A stretch of DNA of 64,000 nucleotides from Ignavibacteriota bacterium (GCA_003142475.1 PLMK01000006.1:10225-74224), one strand, 5' to 3'; shown: positions 4,062 through 26,592, counted from the first letter of the stretch. Numbers and translations: made by a program. Notes: generated by a model not told the origin, from the letters alone.

Positions 4062-5735
4062 TTATTCCCGTGTCAGTCGCTTGTACTTTATTCTATGTGG
4101 CTGGTCGGCATCGATACCGAGTTGTTTCTTCCGATGTTCTTCATACTCAGAGTAATTTCCGTCAAACCATACAACACTGCTATCACCTTCAAACGCGAGA
4201 ATATGAGTTGCTACACGGTCGAGGAACCAGCGGTCGTGCGAAATAACAACAGCACAACCAACAAAATTACCAAGTGCTTCTTCCAGTGCACGCAATGTGT
4301 TCACATCAAGATCGTTAGTCGGTTCGTCAAGTAAAAGTACGTTTGCGCCATCCTTAAGTACTTTAGCAAGATGTACACGATTACGCTCTCCACCGGAGAG
4401 TTTCCCGACCGGCTTTTGCTGGTCAGTTCCGCTAAAATTAAATCTTGCAACGTAGCCGCGCGAGTTTACCTCGCGATTACCGAGCATAATAATATCTTCT
4501 CCGCCAGAAATTTCCTGCCAAATTGTTTTATCGGGTTCAAGCGGCCGCATTTGATCAACGTAGGCAAGTTTTACCGTATCGCCAATTTTGATACTGCCAG
4601 TGTCTGACTTTTCCTGACCGGTAATGAGTTTGAAAAGCGTAGTTTTGCCGGCACCGTTTGGACCAATGACACCAATGATACCGCCGGGTGGAAGAGCAAA
4701 TTCCATATTTTCAAATAGTAATCTCTCACCAAATGCTTTTGATACACCATGTGCTTCGATGACAACATCACCTAAACGTGGACCCGGTGGAATATAAATT
4801 TCCATTTCTTCGTCATGCTTATCAGTTTGTTCGGCAAGCATTTTTTCGTAAGATGCAATGCGTGCTTTGCTTTTATCGTGGCGACCTTTTGGATTTAAGC
4901 GTACCCATTCCAACTCACGTTGCAGTACGCGCTGACGCTTGGATTCCTGCTTTTCTTCCACTTCCAACCGACGTTTCTTTTGATCTAGCCACGAAGAATA
5001 GTTTCCTTCAAATGGAATACCTTCGCCACGGTCCAGTTCTAATATCCATCCTGCGACGTTGTCGAGGAAGTAGCGATCATGTGTAACTGCAATGACGGTT
5101 CCTTTATACAAACCCAAATGATGTTCTAACCATGCCACAGATTCCGCGTCGAGGTGGTTGGTTGGTTCGTCGAGCAATAATACGTCTGGTTCCTGCAATA
5201 ATAGACGACAAAGGGCCACGCGTCGTCGTTCACCACCAGAAAGAATATTCACCGGCGTTTCAGGCGGTGGACAACGCAATGCATCCATTGCTTGTTCCAG
5301 TTTGCTGTCTAAATCCCAAGCGTTGAGATGATCGATTTTTTCTTGAAGTTTGCTTTGTTTTTCCAGCAAAGTATCATAATCAGCATCCGGTTCCGCAAGC
5401 TGAAGATTTACAGTTTCATATTCTTTTACTAGATCGACAATTTCCTGTACTCCTTCTTCTACAATATTTTTAACTGTTTTGGTCGAATCAAGTTCTGGTT
5501 CTTGCGAAAGAAAACCAAATGTAATTCCTTTTTGTGTAGTGATCTCGCCAAGATAGTCTTTGTCGATTCCGGCGATAATGCGCAGGAGCGTACTCTTGCC
5601 GGCACCGTTCAATCCAAGCACACCGATCTTCGCGCCGTAGAAAAAGGAGAGATAAATGTCTTTTAAAATCTGGCGATTTGGTTTAATGACTTTTCCAACA
5701 CCGACCATAGAAAATATTATTTTATTTTCACTCAT
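4062..5735 (-). CDS. ettA: ABC-F ATPase EttA (energy-dependent translational throttle)
   Basis: 557 aa, two ABC cassettes. Near-collinear similarity to E. coli EttA (VGKVIKPNRQILKDIYLSFFYGAKIGVLGLNGAGKSTLLRI..., C-terminal ...KRIKYKRL). Confidence 0.9.
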   Translation of the reverse strand: MSENKIIFSMVGVGKVIKPNRQILKDIYLSFFYGAKIGVLGLNGAGKSTLLRIIAGIDKDYLGEITTQKGITFGFLSQEPELDSTKTVKNIVEEGVQEIVDLVKEYETVNLQLAEPDADYDTLLEKQSKLQEKIDHLNAWDLDSKLEQAMDALRCPPPETPVNILSGGERRRVALCRLLLQEPDVLLLDEPTNHLDAESVAWLEHHLGLYKGTVIAVTHDRYFLDNVAGWILELDRGEGIPFEGNYSSWLDQKKRRLEVEEKQESKRQRVLQRELEWVRLNPKGRHDKSKARIASYEKMLAEQTDKHDEEMEIYIPPGPRLGDVVIEAHGVSKAFGERLLFENMEFALPPGGIIGVIGPNGAGKTTLFKLITGQEKSDTGSIKIGDTVKLAYVDQMRPLEPDKTIWQEISGGEDIIMLGNREVNSRGYVARFNFSGTDQQKPVGKLSGGERNRVHLAKVLKDGANVLLLDEPTNDLDVNTLRALEEALGNFVGCAVVISHDRWFLDRVATHILAFEGDSSVVWFDGNYSEYEEHRKKQLGIDADQPHRIKYKRLTRE

Positions 5736-6228: not shown

Positions 6229-7839
6229 TTATTTTATCAGAACTAGTTTTTTTATGGTAATAAAATTGTCAGCGGTCATTTTATAAAAATATACGCCGCT
6301 TGAAATACCCGAGGCATTAAAAGTTAATGAAGACTGCCCTGCACTTCGTCTCTCGTTCACCAGTGTTGCAACACGTTCACCTACAATATTGAACACTTCT
6401 AAATTGACATAGCTCTTTTTTGGTAATTCAAAAGAAATAGTAGTCGTCGGGTTAAATGGATTTGGATAATTTTGATTGAGTTTATAACTAGTAGGTTGCT
6501 CATTCTCTTGTTGATCAACGGCAGTTGAACCTTTAGGAGCTAAAACACCACTATTTACTAAAGAATAAGTTTTTCCTCCAAGCGCACTATTTACAGAAAG
6601 AGTTGCATCATAATAGACATTGAAACCATTCCCTGTGATGTTGGTAATAGAGGTGCCGGAAATTCCGCTTACGTCACTCAATGTGGATAAGTACGAAGTC
6701 GCTGTAACAATCCATTTACTACTCGCATCGAGGGTCAGAGTTGCTGTATTGGCAATATTTGCTTTATTAATTGCGCCAGTAAATACAGAAGTATCTTGTA
6801 ACGTGATATATGCCTTACTATCAGCATCCACATGGATCAGACCAGACAAGATTTGATTCTTTGCAACAAAATTGGTGATACCTCCGCTTGAAGCCGAGGA
6901 ACCACCCCAGCTACCTTTGATGCATCTAATTAATGTATCGCAACTATTAACAAGAGATACGCCGTTCAATGTATAATGTGCTGTTGAATTGGTATTGTAA
7001 AACATACCACCCGCTGTACCAGTGTAAGTGAACGAACCGCCTGTCATCGTTAAATATCCATCAACTCCGGCAGCATCACCTGACATGCTTTGGTAAAGTA
7101 ATGATCCCCACTTGTTATAAGTACATTTTACAGTACAATTATTAAGTATTATTTTATTTGAGCCTTCTATTACAAGCGCTTCAGCTCCATTTGCTATTAA
7201 TGTTGCATCGGTACAAGTAATTATACCTGTTGAATAGATGGCCGCAGAATTATTTCCGTTTGAGGTATAAGATCCGCCATTGACCGTTATTGTACCTCCA
7301 CCCCTGTCTGTTGCTATGTTGCTCGAGCTGCCGCCAGAAGTTACAGCCGTATCATTATCGACCGTGATAGTTCCTCCGCCACTACACATGATAGCATGGG
7401 CTCCACCTCCTGTCATAGTATATTTATCATTTGTACTTGTGATACTGGCCGTTCCATAAGCAAAAACACCGTTTGCCCCTGAGCCGGTGGTTGTTATCGT
7501 ACAACCCGTAAGTGTAATTTGACCAGCAGAAGTTGCCAATGCACCAGCGTTAAGACCGTAAAAACTGCTGTTATCATTTGAGCTTGAGCTACCGCTTGTC
7601 GATATGGTGCAATTAGTTAAGGAAAGAATGCCGGAATTGAGAACATAAACTGCTGATTGATCGGTTGTAGAAGAAGTAATCGTTTCACCTGTTTTCGCGG
7701 CTGATCCACCATTCAATGTGTAAGTGCCTGCTAATGTATAACTCGTACTTCCACCTCCTGGCTGAGCCGGACTTTGAATTATGATTGCAACAGTTAGTAC
7801 CATCGCAATAACTATTGAACTTTTTAATTGTTTCATTGC
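6229..7839 (-). CDS. T9SS C-terminal-domain secreted protein with Gly/Ser/Thr-rich beta-helix repeats
   Basis: Ends in NYPNPFNPTTTISFELP...KKLVLIK (Por/T9SS sorting domain). The body is low-complexity G/S/T repeats typical of parallel beta-helix adhesins. Likely start is MKQLKSSIVIAMVL (signal peptide) at 7839; the track's longer ORF to 7974 would overlap the next gene. Confidence 0.7.
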   Translation of the reverse strand, partial: AMKQLKSSIVIAMVLTVAIIIQSPAQPGGGSTSYTLAGTYTLNGGSAAKTGETITSSTTDQSAVYVLNSGILSLTNCTISTSGSSSSNDNSSFYGLNAGALATSAGQITLTGCTITTTGSGANGVFAYGTASITSTNDKYTMTGGGAHAIMCSGGGTITVDNDTAVTSGGSSSNIATDRGGGTITVNGGSYTSNGNNSAAIYSTGIITCTDATLIANGAEALVIEGSNKIILNNCTVKCTYNKWGSLLYQSMSGDAAGVDGYLTMTGGSFTYTGTAGGMFYNTNSTAHYTLNGVSLVNSCDTLIRCIKGSWGGSSASSGGITNFVAKNQILSGLIHVDADSKAYITLQDTSVFTGAINKANIANTATLTLDASSKWIVTATSYLSTLSDVSGISGTSITNITGNGFNVYYDATLSVNSALGGKTYSLVNSGVLAPKGSTAVDQQENEQPTSYKLNQNYPNPFNPTTTISFELPKKSYVNLEVFNIVGERVATLVNERRSAGQSSLTFNASGISSGVYFYKMTADNFITIKKLVLIK

Positions 7840-7867
7840 TTTCCACCCTCCTGTAAAATATTTATCG

Positions 7868-8671
7868 TTATTCGTTCCTATCAGGACATTCTTCATGCAT
7901 CGGTCGATCTTGTTCATTCTCGGGTTTTGGCATGCGCGGCGGTCTTTGAGAATTTTTTTTTTGCAGTTCTTCATATTTCTTTTTCTGATTATCCGTTAGT
8001 ACAGCAGAGATTTTTGCATCGGTTTCCTTCCGCTGCTTTTCCATTTTCTCATGCATTGCTTCGCGTTCCTTCTTCATCTCTTCGCGCTTTGCCTCACGAT
8101 CTTTCTTTGCGGATTCGAACATCTTTTTCACTTCTTCACTTTGGGCCTCGAGGATTTTCTGAATTTTTGTTTCTTGATCGCTAGTAAAATTCAATTCTTT
8201 CTTTAACTCTTTCACAAATTCCTCGGGCGGCAGAGGCGGTTGATCCTCTGGCGGTATGTGTCCAAACATTGGCGGTTGACAATGAGTCTCTTCTTGGCGA
8301 CGATTAAATTTTTCACATTGCTTTTTCTGCATTTCTGTAAACGTTTCTTTTTGTTCTTTGGTTAACAAAGCGGTAATTTTTTCATCAGTTTCTTTTTTGA
8401 TTTTCATCATTGCTTCATGCGTTACTTTATATTCGTTTTCCGATGCTTTTGCTAACTTATCCATTTCGACCTTCTTTGCATCCATAATGGCCTTTATTTT
8501 TGCAATTTGTGCATCTGAAAGATTCAGATCTTTTTGAAGCTGTTCAATCCGATCTGGCTGATCTGCCGACGGCATGGGATGAGATTCCCGGGGTTGACCG
8601 TACACATACGTATAAACAATTAGGATGCAAACGACGAAAATCATTGATTTTAAAGCGACTGTATTTTTCAT
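7868..8671 (-). CDS. periplasmic LTXXQ-motif protein (CpxP/Spy-like), two repeats
   Basis: Signal peptide. Two LTXXQ repeats (LTKEQKETFTEMQKK and LTDNQKKKYEELQKK), highly charged helical repeats, and a Pro-rich linker. Confidence 0.65.
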   Translation of the reverse strand: MKNTVALKSMIFVVCILIVYTYVYGQPRESHPMPSADQPDRIEQLQKDLNLSDAQIAKIKAIMDAKKVEMDKLAKASENEYKVTHEAMMKIKKETDEKITALLTKEQKETFTEMQKKQCEKFNRRQEETHCQPPMFGHIPPEDQPPLPPEEFVKELKKELNFTSDQETKIQKILEAQSEEVKKMFESAKKDREAKREEMKKEREAMHEKMEKQRKETDAKISAVLTDNQKKKYEELQKKNSQRPPRMPKPENEQDRPMHEECPDRNE

Positions 8672-8736
8672 AGTTCACCTTTATTTATGTTTTATAGTTT
8701 CTTTGAAAATCATTTCTACTATTTCACAAATTTTTT

Positions 8737-8836
8737 TACAATTATCACTACTAACTTACAACTATCATCCTTCCAATGAGTTAAGAGCAGGATAAATCTT
8801 TGCTAAGAATGAAAAAAGATTGTTAAAATTGTTAAC
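8737..8836 (+). promoter_or_regulatory. conserved ~100-bp cis-element, copy A, upstream of the LTXXQ gene
   Basis: About 80-85% identical to 12988..13089. Core gagttaagagcaggataaatctttgctaagaatgaaaaaagattgttaaaattgttaa, with TGTTAA direct repeats 9 bp apart. Confidence 0.55.
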
Positions 8837-9101
8837 CCTTGTTTAGATAAATCATTGAGCAGCAATATGCTATTGAACTTTTTGTTTAGTTTTTTTTCTT
8901 TCATATTCATCGCTTCATATTCGGAAGAATAACAACCACCATATGCACCAAATGGGCCACAAATGGTTTCATACTAAACATCAAACTGTTTTTTCTACTG
9001 AATGGTTTCTATCGAGTGTAATTCTCACTTTACGATTCATCATTTCGGAATTATACCACACACCCTTTTTTACAGCTATTTTATCTTTCATTTCCAGATG
9101 C

Positions 9102-10085
9102 CTAATTATGAGCTAATGTTACTTGTGTCCATACTTCAATTGGTTCTGATGAATTAGAATCTTTTCCAGCACGACCGCCACCGGATCCTCCTGAACCACC
9201 ACCAGGAGGTGGTCCACCCTGTCCACCGCCAGAGCCACCTGATCCACCACCAGGAGGAGGTCCGCCTTGTCCACCGCCAGGACCGCCACCTCTAGGATCC
9301 ATTCCACTTGAAGAATTATCTTCTGTTTTAAATCCGATGCCAAGAACATTTTTCTTATCTGTAGGAGCAAGTGCCAACGGAAAATCACTTGTCTTATGTA
9401 GCGGTACTTGAAGTTCATACACAAAAACTTTTTGAGTTATCCCAATTTGCACCTTCATGGTTTTTAGCTCGATTGTGGTTTCTTGTTGTATGTCTTTTTC
9501 TTCTGGCCCAAGAAACTGTATTTCGCGTAAAGCACTGTTAAACATTGCCGACATTTTTCCATCATTGCTGCCTAAATTTGGCCTCGACATTATAGTATCC
9601 ATATTGCCGGGCATTGGAGGAGGCATACGGCTTTCATTTCTGTTGTTATCGGAATAATTATCCTCGTCACTATTAATCCCAGGCATTTGTGAAGAACTGC
9701 CATCTTTTTCCTTGTTCATTGGTTTGGTACCTTTAGGACGACCAACCGGAAATTTGATGCCGTACCGCTCATCCGTTCCTCCGGATGGGTCAAACCAGAC
9801 AGTAAATCCACCATCCATAATTTGGCGCCTTACACCTTGATCATAGGAAATGAAACATAGATAGATGTTCTCTGCGTCATTACGAACTCCGATAGTAACA
9901 TTGACTTTTTTCAAGTCATATAAACTTCCCTCCCATTCATTGAATTTACCGTCGATGACAATCTCGGACTTTTTCCAGTCACTGATCAATGGTACAGCAC
10001 TACTGCATCCCAACAATCCCAGCATGCTTATGAACATAAAATTGAGTAAGAATATTGCTGGTATTTGAAATATTCGTCTATTCAT
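9102..10085 (-). CDS. lipoprotein with C-terminal Gly/Pro-rich tandem repeats
   Basis: Probable start MNRRIFQ...LLGCSS (lipobox). C-terminal GGGQGGPPPGGGSGGSGGG occurs twice, encoded by a ~54-bp tandem DNA repeat. Confidence 0.55.
   Translation of the reverse strand: MNRRIFQIPAIFLLNFMFISMLGLLGCSSAVPLISDWKKSEIVIDGKFNEWEGSLYDLKKVNVTIGVRNDAENIYLCFISYDQGVRRQIMDGGFTVWFDPSGGTDERYGIKFPVGRPKGTKPMNKEKDGSSSQMPGINSDEDNYSDNNRNESRMPPPMPGNMDTIMSRPNLGSNDGKMSAMFNSALREIQFLGPEEKDIQQETTIELKTMKVQIGITQKVFVYELQVPLHKTSDFPLALAPTDKKNVLGIGFKTEDNSSSGMDPRGGGPGGGQGGPPPGGGSGGSGGGQGGPPPGGGSGGSGGGRAGKDSNSSEPIEVWTQVTLAHN
9180..9300 (-). repeat. ~54-bp tandem coding repeat (x2) for the Gly/Pro-rich segment
   Basis: Two near-identical units (cctga..ccaccaccaggagg.ggtcc.cc.tgtccaccgcc). 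Lies inside a CDS and has no spacers, so it is not CRISPR. Confidence 0.6.
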
Positions 10086-10145
10086 AATAACTCCTAAAGT
10101 AAGTGAGTGTTCTATTTTATTGTCCAACATTCAAAAGAACAATTA

Positions 10146-12959
10146 TCAAAAAGTCCCAGGACGTATTGTATAAGTTACTGTCAGCATTACGTAATTGGTC
10201 AATATTTTTGATCGCGTGTCTTCAATATATGCCGATGTCACTGTGTGCGATATAGAACTGTTCTGATGCAATACGTCAAAGGCGTTGAGGGCAATTTCAA
10301 GACTTTGATTCTTTAATAATTTTTTGGCAATACCGAGATTCCAGAGAATATAATGCTGGTCCTCCGATGTGCCTTCCGCATCGTATAATTGACGAGTCAA
10401 ATCACTTCGCATTATAATTCCATTCCACACATTAATGTTTGTTCTGAGGTTTGCATTGTGCTGATAATAATGCGTATTCAGACTGGATTCTTCGGTGTTT
10501 CTAGAATAGGTTAATGTATAATTATACATCAGCGTAAAATCGATATCCTCATTAATATTACTGGCTAGTACGACCCCCTGATTTAAACCATATGCTTGAG
10601 AATAATTCAAAACAGTATTAGTTACAGCTGGCATGCGTGCGTACGACAATCCAGTATTGATATTAAAATTGCATTGAATCCAATCAAGGGGGATACCATA
10701 GGAACACATAGAGTTTACGTTGTAATGACCATTCACATTGACCGGCATAGTTAATTGTGTCCCCTTGTTCAATATTGTGCCATTACTTAAAGTTGTATCG
10801 TGAGAAAAGAGATACGTCGAAGAAGCGATATAATGGTTAGTTGTGCGAACATTAAGCATAACAAAAAGGGAACTGCCATTTATGATATTGTTGAAAGAAT
10901 AATGCAGCATCAACTCGTGCGAGTAGCTTTGAGAAAGGCTTGGATTTCCGGATGTTAACATTGTGGATTTAGTATTATCCATTACATTTTGTAATTGACT
11001 GATAGAGGGTGACGCTGTCGAAGTCTTGTACATTAAATGGAATGAAATAGAAGAAGATGGCTTGTACATCATCAACACCATAGGCAAAATATTTGAATAA
11101 TCTCTGCTCAAAGAAAAAATTGCAGGGAATGTGTAATCGCCGCGCAAAGATGCTCGTTGAAAAGCGACATCTGCTATAAAATTCATTCTTTTCGTTTTCC
11201 CGCGATAGCCAAAACCAATTTGCTGTGTCACGTAGTCGCTGCTCAAGACATTTGACAACGAATCCTTTAAAAGGTTGTACTGCTGGTCATTTGGATCATA
11301 ATCATATACTTTTCTGTCAGACTCGTTCTTTGTTACCAACATATTATAGTTTAATTGAAATAAGTGATGTTCTCCAAATGGTTCTGTGTAGGAGATACTT
11401 GATCCTAGATTTCTCCCAGGAGAACAAGAAATAGTTTTTTGATTTGTTGAATCGCTTTTCGCGATTGTATTATCATAGTAAGTTGTAAGGGATTGTGTCA
11501 ATCCATCGGATTGTGTCCGGTCGGTGTTGAAACGCACTTGGGCTACCAATGTTCGCCCTTGAAGATTGAACAGATGTCTATAAAGTGCAGAGGTTTCAAG
11601 ATTATATCCCTTTGAATTGGTCGACGATTTTACTTGAGCATTATTGATCGGGCTCCCATCAGGCATATTCATATATGAAGAAGAACTGCTTGACGCATCA
11701 TTGGATTGAGTACTCAATCGCGGATCAACAATAATTGTATTGAGCGAATCGATTTTATACTCCACCCGCATTTGAAGGCGGTGGTTATAATTATTGTTAT
11801 CAGTGTTGCTTTTTTCGTGATAAAGTTGATTTCCATTCGAACCAATTCCAAACTGACGATCAATAGTAATATCGTTGTCGTTCTTAATGATATTGCCAAA
11901 ATAATTTCCTGTTGTATACACGTCTTTTGCTAACTGGTTGCCGTAATTTAACCCGAACGAATGCACAGTGTTATCGCCGCTTTGTTGTCCGATAGAGTTC
12001 GATCCTTCGCCCGGAGGTCTGCCGTTTTCCCCGCCGGGACTTCCGCCTGCCCCGTTATTCATTATACCTAACATATCCTGTACAGCAAAATTTTGTTGAT
12101 TAATATCATTACTCGAAGCGATGATGGAATATCGTTCATCACCGTTAAACACGTTAAACATGGTGCCAGCGAGATATTTATCACCGCCATACCCACCATA
12201 TATTTTTCCGAATTCTCCATGCCGACGATCTTCTTTTGTAACAACATTCATAGTTTTTGTCGATTGGCCGTCGTCAAATTTTGTTAATTCTGCCTGATCG
12301 CTCAATTTGTTGTACACCTGAATATTGTCCACCATATCTGCCGGAAGATTACGCAGTGCAATCATTGGGTCACTTCCAAAAAACTCTTTCCCATCCACAA
12401 ACACTTGTTTGATTTCCTCTCCCTGCACTTTCACTGTTTTATCTTCCACGGTAATACCTGGAAGCTTTTTCACCAAATCTTCAATTGTTGCGTCAGGATT
12501 TGTTCGGAATGCTCCTGCATTAAATTGGATCGTGTCGTGGTGCTGTTCTACAGTCGGTAATTGTGCCACAACATCAACGCTTTGCATGAGGACAGGCTGC
12601 TGGATGAGTACAATTGTTCCAACATGTTCATGGGCACTTTGTACGGGAATATCTATTTTTGATTCACGAAATCCAACGCATGAAACTTTAAGGAGATATC
12701 GTGCATACGGTATATTGTTAAACTGAAAATATCCCTGTTCGTTAGTGGCAGTACTATAGCGAACATCAGAAGTATTATTACGCATTAAAAGAACGGTAAC
12801 ATGTTCTAACGGAGCACGGTTAATAGTGTCAATAACAATTCCTGTTAACGATGCTTCTTGTGCAACGAGGAAAACCGGCAGGAATACTAATCCTATGACA
12901 CATATCGCTACATTGTTTTTTCGAACACCTTGATAATTTCTTTTTGATGCTGGTATCAT
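10146..12959 (-). CDS. outer-membrane beta-barrel protein, TonB-dependent-receptor-like, with N-terminal carboxypeptidase-regulatory-like domain
   Basis: 937 aa with a signal peptide. The CarbopepD_reg-like N-terminus (GIVIDTINRAPLEHVTVLL...GYFQFNNIPYARYLLKVSCVGF) is the Bacteroidetes SusC/TBDR architecture. C-terminus ...RPGTF ends in an aromatic residue. Confidence 0.65.
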   Translation of the reverse strand: MIPASKRNYQGVRKNNVAICVIGLVFLPVFLVAQEASLTGIVIDTINRAPLEHVTVLLMRNNTSDVRYSTATNEQGYFQFNNIPYARYLLKVSCVGFRESKIDIPVQSAHEHVGTIVLIQQPVLMQSVDVVAQLPTVEQHHDTIQFNAGAFRTNPDATIEDLVKKLPGITVEDKTVKVQGEEIKQVFVDGKEFFGSDPMIALRNLPADMVDNIQVYNKLSDQAELTKFDDGQSTKTMNVVTKEDRRHGEFGKIYGGYGGDKYLAGTMFNVFNGDERYSIIASSNDINQQNFAVQDMLGIMNNGAGGSPGGENGRPPGEGSNSIGQQSGDNTVHSFGLNYGNQLAKDVYTTGNYFGNIIKNDNDITIDRQFGIGSNGNQLYHEKSNTDNNNYNHRLQMRVEYKIDSLNTIIVDPRLSTQSNDASSSSSSYMNMPDGSPINNAQVKSSTNSKGYNLETSALYRHLFNLQGRTLVAQVRFNTDRTQSDGLTQSLTTYYDNTIAKSDSTNQKTISCSPGRNLGSSISYTEPFGEHHLFQLNYNMLVTKNESDRKVYDYDPNDQQYNLLKDSLSNVLSSDYVTQQIGFGYRGKTKRMNFIADVAFQRASLRGDYTFPAIFSLSRDYSNILPMVLMMYKPSSSISFHLMYKTSTASPSISQLQNVMDNTKSTMLTSGNPSLSQSYSHELMLHYSFNNIINGSSLFVMLNVRTTNHYIASSTYLFSHDTTLSNGTILNKGTQLTMPVNVNGHYNVNSMCSYGIPLDWIQCNFNINTGLSYARMPAVTNTVLNYSQAYGLNQGVVLASNINEDIDFTLMYNYTLTYSRNTEESSLNTHYYQHNANLRTNINVWNGIIMRSDLTRQLYDAEGTSEDQHYILWNLGIAKKLLKNQSLEIALNAFDVLHQNSSISHTVTSAYIEDTRSKILTNYVMLTVTYTIRPGTF

Positions 12960-12987
12960 TATTCAATGATATTTGTGATGAAATAAT

Positions 12988-13089
12988 TACAGTATCTCGA
13001 CTACAGTAATGTAAAGTATTCTTGAAATGTTGAGTTAAAATGAGGATAAATATTTGCTAAAGATGAAAAGAGTTTGTTAAGAGTGTTAA
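12988..13089 (+). promoter_or_regulatory. conserved ~100-bp cis-element, copy B, between the outer-membrane barrel gene and the histidine-kinase gene
   Basis: Same orientation and same distance (~75-110 bp) from a minus-strand gene start as copy A. Core gagttaaaatgaggataaatatttgctaaagatgaaaagagtttgttaagagtgttaa. Confidence 0.55.
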
Positions 13090-13130
13090 AAAACAATGAA
13101 GAAGAATAAATGGATGTGTATATTTGAATT

Positions 13131-14837
13131 ATGAAACTCCTGCAAACATACGGTAGTGCAGTTATCATTGTTGTCATTGCCATGGTGATCATACTTCCGC
13201 TTCTCGCTTATTTACAATACACATGGCTTGGTCAAATAAGCGAACAAGAATATGAACGGATGAAACAAAATTTGCAGACTACTGCATTTCATTGTTCCAT
13301 GGATTTCAGCCGTGAAATAACAGACTTAATGAAATCCCTTGGTGGAACACTTATCGGCTCCGACGATGACGTAGAAAAGACATTGCACGAGAGAATTATA
13401 AAGTGGCAAACAATATCCACATATCCTGCGATTGTTTCCACAGAAATCAAGATCGGTTCTTCGCCTTCTCCTGAACAGACTGTTCAGATCAAAGCGGACG
13501 AAGAATCAATGCTTTTTCTATTTAAAGATTTATCCGCAATGGCTATACCAATTAAGAACCGATCTCATGAAGTTGTCTTAGTACCATTAAATCTTGAATA
13601 TATTTCATCTTCAATTCTGCCAAAGATTATAAAAACAAATTTTTCATCGATTACTAGATCTGAATATGATATCGTTATCATCAATGACAAAGGAAATCAT
13701 ATTTACAATTCAGTTGATACAACGAAGCATGATATTCTTCAGAAAGCCGATCTTGTTATTCCATTTTTAACCTTCCCGCAAGTGCCGCCGCTTTCTTCGA
13801 TGCCGCCCGATCGACCGATTCTTAATCGAATGCATCTATACCGAGAGAATCCGCCTGAACCATTTGAACGAAATCCGAGAGAACTCGAGCGCAGATATGA
13901 CCTTCCTCCCCCACAAGGAAATATGATGCCAAGGGAAGAGGAAAGAAGATTGAGAGAACGTGGATTATTCGAGATGCAGTTGAAACATCGTGAGGGTTCT
14001 TTAGAAATAGCAGTAAATAAAAATCGACTGCGAAATTTCGGAATTAGTTTCGGTGTTTTGATTTTACTCGGAGCAAGCATTGTCTTTCTTCTTCTTTCTA
14101 CAAATAGAGCACGGCGTCTTGCGCAACAGCAATTGGAATTCGTTGCCGGCATCTCACACGAACTGCGAACACCTCTCGCTGTTCTGAAATCAGCAGGCGA
14201 GAATCTTGCAGACGGCGTCATTCAGGAAAAAGACCGCACACGGAAATATGGAGAGCTTATTAAAAATGAAGTTATTCGTCTTTCCGATATGGTCGAAAAG
14301 GCATTAGCATATGCCGGTATCCACTCTGGAAAACAAAACTATGAACTGCGTTCTATCGATATTACACCTATCATTACAGAAGCGATACAAAATGCAAAAA
14401 AACTCTTGCCATCGTATAATTTTAAGGCCGATACAGTTATTGATCTAAATCTTCCACAAGTGCTTGGAGATGCAACTGCATTACAATCAGCAATAGAGAA
14501 CCTAATCGTCAACGGGATAAAATATAGCTTAGAAAAGAAGTGGATCAATATCGAAGCACATCAAGTGAAAAACTCAAATGGATCGTTTGTAGAAATCAAA
14601 GTTATAGATCGCGGTATCGGTATTGCAGCGGCAGATTTTTCCCACATTTTCAAACCTTTTTATCGAGGCCAAAATGCAATAGAAGGACAAATACAGGGCA
14701 GTGGCCTTGGATTGAGTATAACAAGACATATTATTGAATTGCATGGAGGAACAATTTCTATAAAAAGTTCGCCTAATGAAGGAAGTGTATTTACAATTCT
14801 CCTTCCTTCAATAATACAGGATGAAGAAAGTAAATGA
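13131..14837 (+). CDS. sensor histidine kinase (two transmembrane helices, periplasmic sensor domain)
   Basis: HisKA H-box AGISHELRTPLAVLK and HATPase_c motifs (NLIVNGIKYS, GSGLGLSI). The periplasmic part has a Pro/Arg/Glu-rich low-complexity stretch before the second transmembrane helix. Confidence 0.85.
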   Translation: MKLLQTYGSAVIIVVIAMVIILPLLAYLQYTWLGQISEQEYERMKQNLQTTAFHCSMDFSREITDLMKSLGGTLIGSDDDVEKTLHERIIKWQTISTYPAIVSTEIKIGSSPSPEQTVQIKADEESMLFLFKDLSAMAIPIKNRSHEVVLVPLNLEYISSSILPKIIKTNFSSITRSEYDIVIINDKGNHIYNSVDTTKHDILQKADLVIPFLTFPQVPPLSSMPPDRPILNRMHLYRENPPEPFERNPRELERRYDLPPPQGNMMPREEERRLRERGLFEMQLKHREGSLEIAVNKNRLRNFGISFGVLILLGASIVFLLLSTNRARRLAQQQLEFVAGISHELRTPLAVLKSAGENLADGVIQEKDRTRKYGELIKNEVIRLSDMVEKALAYAGIHSGKQNYELRSIDITPIITEAIQNAKKLLPSYNFKADTVIDLNLPQVLGDATALQSAIENLIVNGIKYSLEKKWINIEAHQVKNSNGSFVEIKVIDRGIGIAAADFSHIFKPFYRGQNAIEGQIQGSGLGLSITRHIIELHGGTISIKSSPNEGSVFTILLPSIIQDEESK

Positions 14838-15535
14838 TCTCAGGCCAAAAGAGAATTCTTTTAGTAGAAGATGAAACCGGCTTAGTGTTGACATTGACAG
14901 ATAGACTTTCAAGCGAAGGATATGCAGTTACACATGCTGGTGATGGAGAAAAAGGTGAGAAGCTCGCATCCGAAGGACATTTTGATGTAATTCTTCTTGA
15001 TGTGATGCTGCCGAAAAAGAACGGATTTGATATTATCAGGGATCTGCGTAAGCGAGGAGTCACCACGCCAGTTTTGATGCTAACCGCTCGGGGGCAACTA
15101 AACGAAAAGGTTGTCGGGTTGAAACTTGGTGCTGATGATTATCTCACGAAACCTTTCGAAACGCTTGAACTGCTTGCACGAATAGAATCACTCTTGCGGC
15201 GGCATGCACCGGTAATTATTCCTATCTTGGAACTTGCGTCATATTCTTTTGGATTATTTAAAATTGATTTTATAAAGATGGAAATAAAGCGCAAAGGCAA
15301 ACTGATCGAACTCTCAGCACGCGAATTTCTGCTACTTCGATACTTCATCGAACATCGCGGCAGTGTCTTATCCCGCGAAACTATTCTTAACGATGTGTGG
15401 GGTTATGATGCAATGCCCACCACAAGAACTATCGACACTCACATTACTTGGCTTCGGCAAAAATTAGAAGAGAATCCAAAATTTCCTAAGTACATTCTCA
15501 CAGTTCATGGATTCGGATACAAGTTTGTTGGATAA
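14834..15535 (+). CDS. OmpR/PhoB-family response regulator
   Basis: Receiver domain (ILLVEDE...DVILLDVMLP) plus winged-helix trans_reg_C (LSAREFLLLRYFIEHRGSVLSRETILNDVWG). Its ATG overlaps the histidine-kinase stop (ATGA). Confidence 0.9.
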   Translation: MISGQKRILLVEDETGLVLTLTDRLSSEGYAVTHAGDGEKGEKLASEGHFDVILLDVMLPKKNGFDIIRDLRKRGVTTPVLMLTARGQLNEKVVGLKLGADDYLTKPFETLELLARIESLLRRHAPVIIPILELASYSFGLFKIDFIKMEIKRKGKLIELSAREFLLLRYFIEHRGSVLSRETILNDVWGYDAMPTTRTIDTHITWLRQKLEENPKFPKYILTVHGFGYKFVG

Positions 15536-17333: not shown

Positions 17334-17429
17334 TAGATCTACCGAAGGAATAAAATTCCAACTCCGGCAACTGCCGTACACGCTCCAATGATAGCACGCC
17401 AAGAGAGCTTCTCGTGAAATAGAATCCAT
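17334..17429. repeat. 96-bp direct repeat, copy 1 (relic 3' ends of sensor and EamA paralogues)
   Basis: About 90% identical to 20309..20404. Retains in-frame codons ...DLPKE* (sensor-like) and, on the opposite strand, ...LFHEKLSWRAIIGACTAVAGVGILFLR* (EamA-like). Confidence 0.8.
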
Positions 17430-17503
17430 ACATTGATTCTTGTTCACCGTTATATTAGATTAATACTTAGTGTGATTCATTTCATTCATTAATAAATACG
17501 GCT

Positions 17504-20326
17504 ATGCAAAAAATTAATGTGATAGTAATGAGAATAGCGCTTCTATTTCTTGCGTCATTATTTACTATTTTTAGCACAATTGCCCAAACTGAGAAAATGG
17601 CATTTAAAAGCCTGACTACAAGCATGGGTTTGTCTCATGGAGATGTGTTGTGCTTTTATCAGGACCATGACGGTTATATTTGGATCGGTACGACGGATGG
17701 TTTAAACAAATATGATGGTGTCGGATTTACTGTATACAAAAATAATCAAAAAGATTCCACTTCTTTAATAAGTAGTTACATTAACTGTATATATGAAGAC
17801 AAACAAAATAATCTCTGGATTGGATTACAAGACGGTTTATGCAGATATGACCGGGATAAAAATAATTTCGAGAGAATATCCTTCATTGATATTCACGATA
17901 ACAAATTTGGTAATTCTGTAAATCAAATATTTGAAGACAATAGTAAGGGGTTGTGGGTTGGATGCAGTGAAGGAGTATATTTATTTAACAGGGAAAATAA
18001 AAGATTTACTGCCTGCTTTAAGGATTCTTCCAACATAAATACTTTAATGAATTGTTCCGGTATATGCCAGGATAAAGACGGGATGCTTTGGTTCTCTTTT
18101 ACGCATGCTCCTAACCTTGGTATCATACAATACAATGCGGTAACAAATACGGCAATCCAATATAGCACACAAAATCCTCTATATAAATTAAGGGAAAATT
18201 CTGTCAATTGCTTAATGGTTGATAACCAAAATAATATTTGGGTTGGTCATATTTCAAGCGGCATTGAGGTAATCAATTTACGAACAAAAACAATTACCAG
18301 CTATCAGACTATTGTCAATAATCATAATTCTTTAAGCAATAACAATATTTTTTCGATGGCACAGAATAAGGATGGGAAAATACTTATCGGTACGAATGGA
18401 GGAGGTATAAGTGTTTTCGATCCCAGCACAAAATTATTCTGCCAATACACTGCATCGGAATCCGATCGGTCATTATTAAGTAATGTCATTCAAAGAATAT
18501 ACATTAGTCGCGATGGTATGGTGTGGATTGGATGTTGGGGGGCCGGCGTAAGCATTTATGATAAGCGCTTTGAACGGTTTGCACTATATAGACAAAATAA
18601 AGAAGACATAAATTCTTTAGATGGTAGCTCGGTTACGTGTTTTACACAAGATTTAAATGGAAATATATGGATAGCGACAGATGGCGGCGGAATTAATTCA
18701 TTTAATCCGTCTACAGGAAACTTCACAAGACACAGAAGCGATAGTAAAAATCCTCTGACGTTAACCAACAACAAGGTTTTGGCGCTCAATAAAGATAATA
18801 AGGGCGGTTTGTGGGCAGGTATGTGGCAGGGCGGATTAAACTATTTTAAAATAGACGGTGATAAACTTATTTTAAAGAAGAAATACAATTTTGTTGATGA
18901 AAACGATTTGACCAGTAATAGTATTTTTAATATTTATTTTAATAAAGACAATGAACTCTGGGTAGGAAATTATTTAAGCGGGGCATATAAATATGATCCC
19001 TCTACTGAAAAATTTAAATCCATAAAATTTATTTCAGGAGCAATTACGTACATTTCAATAAGGGATATTTTATGTGATTCCTACAACGACGTATGGTTTG
19101 CCTCTGATACTTATGGTTTAACAAGGATGAACCGTGAATCCGGAGAAATTGACAGATTTATGCATGACGAAAAAGATAGCACCAGCTTGATTAAAAACTC
19201 AATAAATGTTGTTTTTGAAGACAGCAAAAAACGTTTATGGGTTAGTGGTGATGGAGATGGATTGAATCTTTTTAACCGTAAAACTAAATCTTTTACACAT
19301 TATACTACTGAACAGGGATTGCCTGATAATTCACTTGTGGGGATATTGGAAGATGAACATGGTAATCTATGGATTAGCAGCCATAATGGTATTTCAAAGG
19401 CAACCATCGATTCAACAAATTCAATAAATGGAAAACTAGATCTTACATTCAGGAATTATACGGTTCAGGATGGATTACAAGGTAAAGTTTTTAATCGCTG
19501 GGCTTATTATAAAAGCAGAACAGGTGAAATGTATTTTGGCGGGCTTAATGGTTTCAACGTGTTTCATCCGGATAGTATAAAAGATAATAGTTATATACCC
19601 CCGGTCCATATTACTGATTTTTTACTGTTCAATAAACCAGTGATCATTGGAGCAAAAGGCTCGCCCCTGCAAAAGCATATTTCGCAAACAAAAAAATTGG
19701 TGTTAAATTATGACCAAACCAACTTTACATTTAAGTTTATTGCATTAAATTATATTTTCAGCGAAAAGAACCAATATGCTTATATAATGGAAGGTTTTGA
19801 GAAAGACTGGAATTATGTAGGAAATAAGAAAGAGGCTGTTTACACGAACCTTGACCCGGGTGAATATACATTCAGAGTCAAGGCTTCCAACAACGATGGT
19901 ATCTGGAACGAAGAAGGGACTTCAATCAAAATCATTATTCTGCCTCCGTGGTGGAACACCTGGTGGTTCTATAGCTTTATACTGGTTGTGATGATAGGAT
20001 TCGTGTTTGGTCTGTACCGATGGCGTGTTTGGCAACTCTTAGCAAGAGAAAAAATGTTAAAAGCCAATGTTAAAGAAGCCGTGGCAAAAATCAAAGTGCT
20101 AAACGGTCTTATCCCCATTTGTGCAAGCTGCAAGAAAATACGCGATGACAAAGGATATTGGGATCAGTTAGAAGGATATATCCAGAGTCACTCAGAAGCT
20201 AAATTTAGTCATGGTGTTTGTCCGGAGTGTGCTGAAAAGTTATATGGTGACTTTTATAAAAAAATGAAAAATCAACAAGATGTGACTTCCGCAATATCAC
20301 TGCCGCCAGATCTACCTAAGGAATAA
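17504..20326 (+). CDS. membrane sensor protein: periplasmic two-component-regulator beta-propeller/Y_Y_Y repeats, one transmembrane helix, cytoplasmic coiled coil and Cys-rich C-terminal domain (no kinase)
   Basis: Repeated WIGT..GL..YD units and the Y_Y_Y-like region are typical of Bacteroidetes hybrid sensors. Transmembrane helix WWFYSFILVVMIGFVFGLY. Instead of HisKA/HATPase it ends in IPICASCKKIRDDKGYWDQLEGYIQSHSEAKFSHGVCPECAEK. Confidence 0.75.
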   Translation: MQKINVIVMRIALLFLASLFTIFSTIAQTEKMAFKSLTTSMGLSHGDVLCFYQDHDGYIWIGTTDGLNKYDGVGFTVYKNNQKDSTSLISSYINCIYEDKQNNLWIGLQDGLCRYDRDKNNFERISFIDIHDNKFGNSVNQIFEDNSKGLWVGCSEGVYLFNRENKRFTACFKDSSNINTLMNCSGICQDKDGMLWFSFTHAPNLGIIQYNAVTNTAIQYSTQNPLYKLRENSVNCLMVDNQNNIWVGHISSGIEVINLRTKTITSYQTIVNNHNSLSNNNIFSMAQNKDGKILIGTNGGGISVFDPSTKLFCQYTASESDRSLLSNVIQRIYISRDGMVWIGCWGAGVSIYDKRFERFALYRQNKEDINSLDGSSVTCFTQDLNGNIWIATDGGGINSFNPSTGNFTRHRSDSKNPLTLTNNKVLALNKDNKGGLWAGMWQGGLNYFKIDGDKLILKKKYNFVDENDLTSNSIFNIYFNKDNELWVGNYLSGAYKYDPSTEKFKSIKFISGAITYISIRDILCDSYNDVWFASDTYGLTRMNRESGEIDRFMHDEKDSTSLIKNSINVVFEDSKKRLWVSGDGDGLNLFNRKTKSFTHYTTEQGLPDNSLVGILEDEHGNLWISSHNGISKATIDSTNSINGKLDLTFRNYTVQDGLQGKVFNRWAYYKSRTGEMYFGGLNGFNVFHPDSIKDNSYIPPVHITDFLLFNKPVIIGAKGSPLQKHISQTKKLVLNYDQTNFTFKFIALNYIFSEKNQYAYIMEGFEKDWNYVGNKKEAVYTNLDPGEYTFRVKASNNDGIWNEEGTSIKIIILPPWWNTWWFYSFILVVMIGFVFGLYRWRVWQLLAREKMLKANVKEAVAKIKVLNGLIPICASCKKIRDDKGYWDQLEGYIQSHSEAKFSHGVCPECAEKLYGDFYKKMKNQQDVTSAISLPPDLPKE

Positions 20327-20404
20327 AATCCCAACTCCAGCGACTGCTACACATGCTCCAATGATAGCACGCCAAGAGAGCTTCTCGTGAAATAGAATCC
20401 ATAC
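20309..20404. repeat. 96-bp direct repeat, copy 2 (functional convergent 3' ends of the sensor and EamA genes)
   Basis: See copy 1. Covers the 15-bp convergent overlap of 17504..20326 and 20312..21202. Confidence 0.8.
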
Positions 20405-21202
20405 AGTCGGAAGCATAAGAATAGGAACTGTTGCCATAATCGTTGCTGCAACAGCGACAGTTGTTGATGAAATGGCAATGAGGCTGAATGTTACACCAAG
20501 ATATGGGCCAAGGAACGCACCCAGCATTGTGAAATTGAATGCTTTCTGGTCATCTCTGAATACTATAAAAGGGTGTGTAAATCGTCCCGCATAATAATTC
20601 AACGGCAGCAGTACGATGGTAGCGGCAACAGCTCGAATAAAAGTCGCAATAAATCCATTAATTTCTCCTAACGCAAAAGCCTTTTTTGCCAATATAAGTC
20701 CACCAGCCTGACCCGCCGCACCAAGGAGAGCGTACCATAAACCAGTCATAGATATCGGAGTATGATGTGAAGATGGTTCTCTTCGTTCTAGGATAACAAG
20801 AGCAATACCGCCAAGAGTGATGATCATTCCAAGAATAGCTGTGGACGAAAGTGTTTCTTGAAGAAAAAAATACGCAAATACCGCAGTGATAGCGGGTGCC
20901 GTTGACATTATGAGCATACTAATTCGCGCATCGTTATATTCGTACGATTTAAAAAGAAACGTATCGCCGAAAACAAACCCAATTAAACCACTAATGGAAA
21001 GAAACATCACCTGTACAGCAGATACATTCACCTTAATATCGCAAACGACGATAGTCGCAAATAAGAAAACAACCGCCGCAATAAGCCGCACAACATTTAC
21101 GTACACAGAACCGACACGCGTAGTTCCTGCAGCAAAAGCAAGCGCGCTTCCTGTCCACATCACGGCTGTTATAAGAGCGCTTAATTCCCCGGTGTATGAC
21201 AT
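20312..21202 (-). CDS. EamA/DMT-family transporter
   Basis: Ten predicted transmembrane helices with two EamA-like halves. 296 aa. Confidence 0.8.
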   Translation of the reverse strand: MSYTGELSALITAVMWTGSALAFAAGTTRVGSVYVNVVRLIAAVVFLFATIVVCDIKVNVSAVQVMFLSISGLIGFVFGDTFLFKSYEYNDARISMLIMSTAPAITAVFAYFFLQETLSSTAILGMIITLGGIALVILERREPSSHHTPISMTGLWYALLGAAGQAGGLILAKKAFALGEINGFIATFIRAVAATIVLLPLNYYAGRFTHPFIVFRDDQKAFNFTMLGAFLGPYLGVTFSLIAISSTTVAVAATIMATVPILMLPTVWILFHEKLSWRAIIGACVAVAGVGILFLR

Positions 21203-23609: not shown

Positions 23610-23773
23610 ATCTAAATCCCTATTATATAAAATTAGGCAATCATATACTTAACAACCCTTGGGATATAAAGTATATGATTACCGCAAAACCGAGGTAATT
23701 ATGAAAACTCTTCAAGAAATCTCAATAACTGAGATATGGGCAAATACAACAGGCGTATGTAAACCTTCTACTG

Positions 23774-24759: not shown

Positions 24760-25730
24760 ATGTTGTATATTTTAGGTAGTTAAATAACCTAAGGAACATT
24801 ATGAAAACCGTTGCAAAACATACCGAACCGAAAATACAAAGCTTATTAGATGTTGAAAAAGTATTCCCAGATGAAAAAACATGTATTGAATATATGATTC
24901 AAAAGCGTTGGAACGGTAAGCCAAGATGCCCACACTGTGATAGTGAAAAAGTATATCGCTATTCAGACAACAAGCGGTTCAAGTGCCCCGCTTGTGCTAA
25001 ACAGTTCACAATAAAAATTGGTACCATCTTTGAAGATTCACCTCTTTCATTGCAAAAATGGTTCTTTGCAATATTCTTACTTACAGCACACAAAAAAGGA
25101 ATTTCATCTTGTCAATTGGCAAGAGATATTCATGTAACACAAAAATCAGCATGGTTTATGACTCAAAGAATTCGTGAATTGATGAAAACAAATTCCTTTG
25201 AAAAGAAATTAAACGGAATAGTTGAAGCAGATGAAACTTACGTCGGCGGAAAGAAACATAGTGGCAAACGTGGACGCGGTTCTGAGAACAAAACGCCAGT
25301 ATTCGGAATGGTAGCAAGACAGGGCGACGTAAGGACTATGCCAGTTGAAAGAGTGAACGGCGAAACCTTAAAAGGACTTATCCGAAAGAACGTAGACCTT
25401 AACGCCGTAGTAATGACAGACGAATGGACTGCGTATAATAATCTTTCCAATGAATTCAAACATGAAGTAATCAACCACAGTTCAAAAGAATATGTGAGAG
25501 GCAATATTCACACAAACAACATTGAAAACTTTTGGAGTTTGCTTAAACGCGGTATAGTAGGAATTTATCATCATGTTGATCCTAAACATTTACATCGCTA
25601 TACCGATGAATTTCAGTATCGTTATAATTCAAGAAAAATTACCGACGCAGATAGATTCACGCAAATTTTAAGTCAATGCGAAGGACGCTTGACATATGCA
25701 ACGCTTATTAATAAATAGGTGTTATTATGA
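24760..25730 (+). mobile_element. IS1595-family insertion sequence (ends not resolved)
   Basis: Contains a single IS1595-type transposase gene. Terminal inverted repeats could not be identified by eye, so boundaries are approximate. Confidence 0.5.
24801..25718 (+). CDS. IS1595-family transposase
   Basis: N-terminal zinc-ribbon (CPHCDSEKVYRY...KCPACAKQF), then ...SLQKWFFAIFLLTAHKKGISSCQLARDIHVTQKSAWFMTQRIRE... and a DDE core (VEADETYVGG...MTDEW). 305 aa. Confidence 0.85.
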   Translation: MKTVAKHTEPKIQSLLDVEKVFPDEKTCIEYMIQKRWNGKPRCPHCDSEKVYRYSDNKRFKCPACAKQFTIKIGTIFEDSPLSLQKWFFAIFLLTAHKKGISSCQLARDIHVTQKSAWFMTQRIRELMKTNSFEKKLNGIVEADETYVGGKKHSGKRGRGSENKTPVFGMVARQGDVRTMPVERVNGETLKGLIRKNVDLNAVVMTDEWTAYNNLSNEFKHEVINHSSKEYVRGNIHTNNIENFWSLLKRGIVGIYHHVDPKHLHRYTDEFQYRYNSRKITDADRFTQILSQCEGRLTYATLINK

Positions 25731-26230: not shown

Positions 26231-26592
26231 ATCATCTATATTGGCAGAGAGACTTTTTATCACTTCGCCTAATTCAACGTGATTTTCAGGAGGAGATTTT
26301 TCCTCTTGAACGGATTCTTCGGGAATATCTTTTGAATCATCATCACTCATAATAACCTCAAGGATATATGAAAAAAGTTAAACGAAATAAAAAACAAACT
26401 AAGAAGCGGAACAAAGAATACCAAAAGCCGCTTCATATAGATATGCCCTTTGAAGAGGCATTATCTGTAATAGTAAAAGCAAAGCCGACTAAGAAATGAT
26501 TGAAAAGCATATTATAATGCAACAATATAGCTCTAATCCTAAGGGTAGTCAAGTATATGATTGCCTAAATATTTATCTCGTAGAGAAACAAT

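Follow-up and report, generated by a model that had tools for sequence, protein, structure and literature searches.

Response regulators of the OmpR/PhoB family bind tandem direct repeats. The OmpR sites of ompF (F1-F2-F3) and ompC (C1-C2-C3) are each arranged as three contiguous sites of ~20 bp with two ~10-bp sub-sites apiece, so that six binding units are packed into ~60 bp immediately ahead of the -35 region (PMC3050692). ArcA, a member of the same family, has sites made of two to five direct repeats, which are mostly 11 bp and sometimes 22 bp apart (PMC3798270). In the Cpx envelope stress response of Enterobacteria and Vibrio, cpxP, which codes for a periplasmic protein of the LTXXQ family, is transcribed divergently from the OmpR-family two-component operon cpxRA (PMC6737893), and the tandem direct-repeat boxes of CpxR, GTAAA-N5-GTAAA, are reported to function in either orientation (PMC5063474). 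The zraP gene of E. coli, which codes for a Spy/CpxP-like periplasmic protein, is likewise divergent from zraSR, and the spacer that they share is the main target of ZraR and provides both autoregulation and induction of the chaperone (PMC8249747). Here we describe a related layout in a 64,000-nucleotide stretch of DNA from an Ignavibacteriota bacterium (GCA_003142475.1, PLMK01000006.1:10225-74224; called the window below), in which a 59-bp element occurs twice beside a sensor histidine kinase/response regulator operon and genes of envelope proteins. With a probability of roughly three in four, this element would be the operator of the adjacent OmpR/PhoB-type regulator (14834-15535), serving divergent promoters for autoregulation and for control of the envelope genes.

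Both copies of the element are intergenic and are read on the + strand. The two intergenic regions (8672-9101 and 12960-13130) were compared by ungapped local matching and tested against 1000 dinucleotide-preserving shuffles. The best match pairs 8777-8835 (copy A) with 13031-13089 (copy B) on the same strand and has 49 of 59 bases identical (83%). Its score is 34, as against 9.3 ± 1.2 in the shuffles, whose maximum was 15 (z = 21); the G+C content of the window is 40.8%. A preliminary description of this DNA had reported a repeat of ~100 bp at 80-85% identity, extending over 8737-8836 and 12988-13089. The pair is real, but only 73% of positions agree over this full length, the 5' ~40 nt showing a weak resemblance with 29 matches across 47 aligned columns. 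The real unit is the 59-bp core together with one short conserved hexamer situated 16-17 nt upstream. In nhmmer profile searches, copy A was matched with E = 1.1e-15 and copy B with E = 1.6e-13; when a profile made from 20 cores was run over all 64 kb, it recovered these two copies and no others, the next match having E = 2.5. The surrounding genes are as previously described. Core A lies 106-164 bp upstream of the ATG (8671) of a minus-strand gene for a periplasmic LTXXQ protein, and core B 72-130 bp upstream of the ATG (12959) of a minus-strand gene for an outer-membrane barrel protein. Core B also directly precedes the kinase/response regulator operon, ending 41 nt before the kinase ATG (13131).

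Each core contains six nGnnAA hexamers, mostly TGTTAA-like, at core positions 4, 15, 26, 35, 46 and 55. All are on the + strand: S1 (AGTTAA; 8779-8784 in copy A, 13033-13038 in copy B), S2 (GGATAA; 8790-8795, 13044-13049), S3 (TGCTAA; 8801-8806, 13055-13060), S4 (TGAAAA; 8810-8815, 13064-13069), S5 (TGTTAA; 8821-8826, 13075-13080) and S6 (TGTTAA; 8830-8835, 13084-13089). They form direct, not inverted, repeats. The steps between them are 11, 11, 9, 11 and 9 bp, with a mean of 10.2 bp, which phases the half-sites on one face of the DNA helix and leaves room for about three dimers. The terminal AA is invariant in all six half-sites of all 24 distinct cores found in the window and in related loci, and the G at position 2 is nearly invariant, whereas the variable positions are located between the hexamers. 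The autocorrelation of the information content peaks at lags of 10-11 bp (r = 0.37-0.43). The TGTTAA direct repeats and the upstream GTTAA noticed earlier are both confirmed: TGTTAA-N3-TGTTAA occurs exactly at 8821-8835 and 13075-13089 and nowhere else in the window, and GTTAA is found at 8780-8784 (copy A) and 13034-13038 (copy B). The tandem direct form proposed for the half-sites is borne out, with six of them rather than two or three.

Copies in relatives were collected in two ways. A contig of a metagenome-assembled genome (MAG) labelled 'uncultured Bacteroidetes bacterium' (locus L001) was found via the kinase; its element stands 41 nt ahead of the kinase ATG, and another copy is located elsewhere on the contig. 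A metagenome collection was scanned without regard to gene context using a pattern for the 3' half of the element, TGAAAA-N4-TTGTTAA-N3-TGTTAA, which yielded 82 loci. The unconstrained 5' half of each match was scored against GAGTTAA-N5-GGATAAAT-N-TTTGCTAA. The scores split cleanly, with 16 metagenome instances reaching 18-23 of 23 and all others 11 or less. Because the search pattern had fixed the 3' half of these copies, loci were also fetched via the protein alone. In a set of 5.8 billion proteins, only 41 are related to the sensor region of the kinase; one of these comes from an 'Ignavibacteriae bacterium' MAG. In the loci fetched by protein for which DNA was available (L093-L098; sensor-region identity 35-68%, no DNA pattern used), the element is found just upstream of the kinase gene in six cases out of six, and L098, which has the gene order of the window, carries a second copy upstream of its LTXXQ gene.

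The context-blind scan and the protein-anchored look-ups together give 27 copies, representing the 24 distinct cores. Nineteen of these are immediately upstream of orthologues of the adjacent kinase/OmpR-type regulator operon, which the element accompanies across kinase identities of 35-100%. Six stand alone upstream of an LTXXQ gene that is separated from the kinase gene (window copy A, L011, L033, L034, L041 and L098), and the remaining two, in L001 and L050, neighbour Kelch and DUF4270 genes instead. The copy of L050 is the only one in an unrelated context that the metagenome scan returned. More than two full copies were seen in none of the related loci, which are up to 22 kb long. When compared with copy B, the cores are 65-88% identical and the adjacent 60 nt 25-43% identical; conservation of the cores against such decayed flanks indicates that the core is under selection. 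No further weaker copies were found in the window by profile search, and relaxed dimer patterns gave only chance-level matches in the window, inside the barrel gene. A 'half copy' in L001 at 8132-8158 lacked significance (nhmmer E = 4.9, with an LTXXQ-like match nearby at E = 0.043) and was set aside.

The kinase/regulator operon is the most constant partner of the element, which implies autoregulation. In most relatives, a single copy is situated between the two divergent units. The gene divergent from the kinase codes for an LTXXQ protein in L019, L021, L042, L080, L084, L093 and L095, for a homologue of the lipoprotein of the window, beside the element, in L043, L076, L087, L094, L096 and L097, and for an HlyD-like adaptor in L018. 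On the divergent side, both the barrel and the lipoprotein are encoded in the window, L011 and L098, and in L094 and L096 the lipoprotein gene is followed by those of efflux components. The divergent partners (LTXXQ protein, lipoprotein, barrel and HlyD-like adaptor) are all envelope proteins. The most G+C-rich relative, L096, has the same T-to-C change, of the GTTAA to GTCAA type, in four of its six half-sites (CGTCAA, TATCAA, TGCCAA and TGTCAA), as expected if one protein reads all of them. The L096 regulator alone carries Thr205Asn in the predicted recognition helix (TRTIDTH-V-N-WLRQKL), and this co-variation may be taken as a lead from a single lineage.

The core is flanked by conserved hexamers. 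On the antisense side, all 27 copies have TAnnTT, separated from the edge of the core by 16-17 nt, in variants that include TAGATT, TAAGTT, TAAATT, TACATT, TAGGTT, TATGTT and TATATT. On the sense side, TATATT (TATAWT) is found 28-29 nt past the last half-site in 19 of 19 kinase-adjacent copies and in none of the eight others, and the kinase ATG follows it after 5-6 nt in most loci and after 11-16 nt in L094. The window has three such hexamers, all putatively of the -10 type: TAAGTT (8753-8758, - strand), 17 nt from core A, for the LTXXQ promoter; TACATT (13008-13013, - strand), 16 nt from core B, for the promoter of the barrel/lipoprotein operon; and TATATT (13119-13124, + strand), separated from core B by 29 nt and from the ATG by 6 nt, for the kinase/regulator operon. 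A Shine-Dalgarno-like sequence is absent before the kinase ATG; the LTXXQ genes have GGTG or GGAGG. We infer that the kinase mRNA starts at or next to the ATG at 13131 and would be leaderless or nearly so, so that the array would occupy positions of about -98 to -42 at the kinase promoter. The antisense transcripts would start near 13001 and 8746, with S1 over the -35 region and the array extending from about -33 upward. A sigma-70 consensus scan reported two sites, as against 2.9 ± 1.7 in shuffles, and none of the outer hexamers had the -35 element that it requires. This outcome is compatible with activator-dependent promoters without a -35 region, but proves nothing. In one sub-lineage, which comprises L001 (~9874-9890), L011 (- strand, ~5546-5562), L098 (~9874-9890) and L076, the antisense -10-like hexamer at the kinase-side copy is overlapped by a palindrome that resembles a Fur box (GATAATCTATCATTATC or a close variant); it is absent from the window.

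In the proposed mechanism, the phosphorylated regulator would occupy the six half-sites as roughly three dimers, and this single platform would control both divergent promoters, that of its own operon and that of the envelope genes. On the sense side, the TATATT hexamer 29 nt past the last half-site would start the kinase/regulator mRNA, and the position of the array implies autoregulation. On the antisense side, TAnnTT would belong to the promoter of the LTXXQ chaperone-like protein, the lipoprotein and the barrel and, in relatives, of the efflux adaptors. Each outward-facing unit of the window would be controlled from its own copy of the array. Since the array is located just upstream of weak or absent -35 regions, activation by the bound regulator is favoured over repression. 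The nature of the partner genes suggests that the signal would be one of envelope stress or efflux. The preliminary description had taken the repeat for a cis-element linked to the two-component system, and the linkage, the low copy number, the phased direct repeats and the flanking hexamers all fit that assignment.

A stricter version of this mechanism is doubtful. The element would be an obligate docking platform for six regulator subunits, whose 11/11/9/11/9 geometry would fire two divergent promoters from one assembly. Such a platform would explain why the stand-alone copies keep all six half-sites, including those that face away. Neither a 9-bp head-to-tail step nor a bidirectional hexameric assembly is described for OmpR/PhoB regulators in PMC3798270 and PMC3050692.

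Several points weigh against the operator assignment. The 3' half of the 16 metagenome copies was set by the search pattern, so that this half has unbiased support from the seven protein-anchored copies only. All promoter assignments rest on hexamers and distances. The 9-bp steps S3-S4 and S5-S6 are atypical for a family in which 10-11 bp is usual, and the assignments of S4 (TGAAAA) and S2 are our own reading. The co-variation of protein and DNA comes from one lineage, L096, only, and the L090 regulator has Thr205Ala with the element unchanged. The stand-alone copies retain half-sites facing away from their target, and the model must assume that the whole array is needed. Finally, the core of copy A contains a sequence readable as a sigma-70-like -35/extended -10 pair.

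The core itself might be a conserved promoter, with transcription starting just after it, rather than an array that binds a regulator. Read on the + strand, this promoter would have the -35 hexamer TTGCTA, an 18-nt spacer and the extended -10 sequence TGtTAAAAT or, in Bacteroidota style, TTTG, 21 nt and TAAAATTG. The consensus scan does report the TTGCTA/TGtTAAAAT pair in copy A, with 9 of 12 matches and TG before the second hexamer, and AAT is the commonest sequence separating S5 from S6, being present in most copies and creating TAAAAT. However, the number of sites in that scan is not above that in the shuffles, and copy B has none. The spacer between S5 and S6 would supply the last bases of the -10 hexamer; it varies between AAT, GAG, GAT, GGT, ATT, AAA, AGA and ACT, and the hexamer is destroyed in window copy B and in L084, L018, L033, L094 and L096. 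A promoter within the core also leaves S1-S2 and the fixed outer hexamers unexplained, and transcription from the stand-alone copies would yield nothing but antisense RNA to a small open reading frame (ORF). It is unlikely that the core has this function.

We regard it as quite improbable that the array is the operator of some other DNA-binding protein, for example a global regulator or a nucleoid protein, and that the two-component operon is merely one of its targets. The central block, GATAAAT-N-TTTGCTAA, does reach beyond the length of a simple half-site, and the further full copies at L001 3762-3820 (- strand) and L050 814-872 (+ strand) have no kinase nearby. Nevertheless, 25 of the 27 copies adjoin the operon or genes that are divergent from the operon in relatives, and besides L050 the context-blind scan gave no unrelated context. 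The direct-repeat symmetry suits winged-helix response regulators, whereas most global regulators bind palindromes. Moreover, the regulator is conserved alongside the element, being 73-92% identical across the loci, while the identity of the kinase sensor region falls to 35%.

The extra copies in L001 and L050 may represent another member of the regulon. They have a Kelch-repeat and DUF4270 gene pair on one side. On the other side is a non-coding stretch of ~170 nt, which is ~95% conserved between the two loci, contains the hairpin CTGTCCGGTCGGACAG and has no match in Rfam. Beyond this stretch, TetR and outer-membrane efflux genes come next in L001.

It is very improbable that the element is a mobile or dispersed repeat, resembling a miniature inverted-repeat transposable element (MITE), or that it was left behind as neutral sequence by a recent segmental duplication and lacks any regulatory role. 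Its two occurrences lie within 4.3 kb in one orientation, and the region is rearranged in relatives, where the barrel gene is present, absent or a remnant. Against a dispersed repeat, the possibility that the preliminary description had set against its own proposal, stand the copy number, with two in the whole window and never more than two full copies per related locus, and the context, with 25 of 27 copies sharing one gene set. The element lacks terminal inverted repeats, its ends being direct (AGTTAA ... TGTTAA), and both A- and B-type copies were kept in L011 and L098 while the flanks decayed and the cores did not.

A function of the conserved stretch as RNA, either as the 5' leader of the kinase mRNA or as a small RNA made from the stand-alone copy, is hardly credible: the stretch from the core to the kinase ATG is well conserved in close relatives and some loci have a 12-codon upstream ORF overlapping that ATG, but RNAalifold finds no consensus structure (energy 0.0 for both strands), Rfam gives no match at the gathering score for the window, L001 or L050, the variation lies between half-sites and is not compensatory, and a minus-strand small ORF accounts for the conservation downstream of copy A. 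The upstream ORF before the kinase (MKKNKWMCIFEL) was rejected as a conserved feature, its start or frame being lost in L019, L090, L001 and L011. A small RNA or leader downstream of copy A was also rejected, because the conservation between copy A and the lipoprotein gene belongs to the ~80-residue ORF on the minus strand.

The gene orders can be accounted for by a simple history. In the simplest one, a single element would at first have been situated between the LTXXQ gene and the kinase operon. The block of barrel, lipoprotein and small ORF would have come between them and the element would have been duplicated, each outward unit keeping a copy. Copies of the A and B types are both kept in L011 and L098, whose kinases are 54-58% identical to that of the window, suggesting that the duplication is old and that both copies are under selection. 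In L001, the barrel gene beside the element is reduced to its last ~86 codons (9357-9614), and the kinase reading frame is split in two (10001-11705). This is either real decay or the result of homopolymer errors in a long-read assembly.

The sensor histidine kinase (13131-14837, + strand) has HisKA and HATPase_c domains according to Pfam and an N-terminal sensor region that is lineage-specific. The OmpR/PhoB-family response regulator (14834-15535, + strand), which is the proposed binder of the array, consists of a Response_reg domain (5.7e-27) and a winged-helix Trans_reg_C domain (1.7e-27), and its full-length relatives in the PDB include RpaA, RegX3, PhoP and KdpE. The named orthologue groups CpxR, BaeR, ArcA, PhoB, OmpR and RprY were considered for it and rejected, as all scores are below the NCBIfam equivalog cut-offs (183.5 bits against 331 for OmpR and 192.2 against 296 for PhoB). 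In the window and its close relatives, the regulator gene is followed by that of a Sel1-repeat protein. In the more distant loci L093 (12522-13100) and L094 (7208-7561), an EF-hand calcium-binding protein gene is found there instead, a neighbour that might be a clue to what the system senses or to its accessory partners.

The LTXXQ (Spy/CpxP-like) periplasmic protein (7868-8671, - strand; Pfam LTXXQ, 5e-12), the proposed target of copy A, matches Spy and CpxP weakly in NCBIfam. Downstream of its gene is that of a secreted protein sorted by the type IX secretion system (6229-7974, - strand; Por_Secre_tail), probably in the same transcription unit; the same gene order is found in L019, L021, L042, L080 and L095. 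The longest ORF of the sorted protein shares 107 nt with the 3' end of the LTXXQ gene, and the signal-peptide-like sequence MKQLKSSIVIAMVL further inside suggests that the true start is probably internal. The first divergent gene at copy B codes for the outer-membrane barrel (10146-12959, - strand; CarboxypepD_reg and OMP_b-brl_3 in Pfam). L011 and L098 have this gene, L001 and L076 either lack it or retain a remnant only, and L043 and L087 lack it. The lipoprotein (9102-10130, - strand) has 342 residues, an LLGCSS lipobox and no family match in Pfam or NCBIfam; among the relatives, the most distant ones have its homologue as the divergent neighbour of the kinase gene. The ~80-residue ORF (8855-9091, - strand) is degenerate in the window, with a frameshift and an in-frame stop, but intact in L011, L034 and L041. 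Its pattern is MKDK..VWYNSKM..KVRI..GG.SSEYE..NMIEKITGQKVQWHIAV, for which no family match was found.

Two further features of the window are located beyond the operon. A direct repeat of 98 nt, 92% identical, occurs at 17335-17432 and 20308-20405, 2973 bp apart. The first copy is in the spacer before a Reg_prop/Y_Y_Y gene (17504-20326), and the second is the 3' end of an EamA-family gene (20312-21202, - strand). The repeat looks like the scar of a tandem duplication of ~3 kb; L090 has two Reg_prop genes in tandem. The segment 23625-26576 is bounded by imperfect inverted repeats of 52 nt (23625-23676 and 26525-26576) and contains an IS1595-family transposase gene (24801-25718, + strand; DDE_Tnp_IS1595, 1.4e-46) and a 167-residue ORF. 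It is probably an insertion sequence or a small transposon.

The analysis provides a precise operator proposal, with six defined half-sites and three predicted start sites, and a first proposed regulon, consisting of the system itself, the LTXXQ chaperone-like protein, the lipoprotein and the barrel, with efflux adaptors in relatives. The two-component system is uncharacterised and confined to an uncultured, Ignavibacteria-like branch of Bacteroidota, and a literature search for LTXXQ proteins with two-component systems in Bacteroidetes found nothing. In Proteobacteria, stress sensors are known that are encoded divergently from a protein of the Spy/CpxP type; the locus suggests that this layout has arisen, or has persisted, in a distant phylum, where regulator and motif are unrelated. 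The locus would also offer a clean natural case of an operator duplicated upon insertion of genes into a divergent promoter region. The control region is otherwise of an ordinary bacterial kind and alters no general concept. Its unusual points would be only the six-site array with two 9-bp steps, the service of two divergent promoters and the predicted leaderless kinase mRNA.

The arrangement closest to cpxP/cpxRA is seen in L019, L021, L042, L080, L084, L093 and L095, where an LTXXQ gene, one element and the kinase/regulator operon follow one another. Unlike the Cpx proteins, however, the regulator scores 157.9 bits against a CpxR cut-off of 341 and the kinase 113.1 against a CpxA cut-off of 486, and the kinase gene precedes the regulator gene, whereas in cpxRA the regulator comes first. 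The half-sites GTTAA, GATAA, GCTAA and GAAAA with 9- or 11-bp steps differ from the CpxR box, and there are six of them rather than one or two boxes. The LTXXQ gene of the window also differs from cpxP in being 4.3 kb away from the kinase gene, with its own copy of the element.

BaeR, the regulator of the E. coli BaeSR system, induces spy and efflux pumps, and this mix of targets resembles the LTXXQ protein of the window and the efflux adaptor genes of the relatives; the regulator described here has 149.4 bits against a BaeR cut-off of 380. The ArcA half-site is also TGTTA-like. Unlike ArcA, which is a global, mostly repressing redox regulator, the present system is local, two of its five steps are of 9 bp, and its regulator has 141.9 bits against the ArcA equivalog cut-off of 334. 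ZraR is a sigma-54 activator of the NtrC type, whereas the regulator here is of the OmpR type. Like the OmpR arrays, the core has six phased half-sites, in 59 bp and at a predicted position of about -98 to -42, but the regulator and motif are different, there is no orthology, and one array is common to two divergent promoters. By all these comparisons, the locus is analogous to cpxP/cpxRA, to zraP/zraSR and to the OmpR array, and orthologous to none of them.

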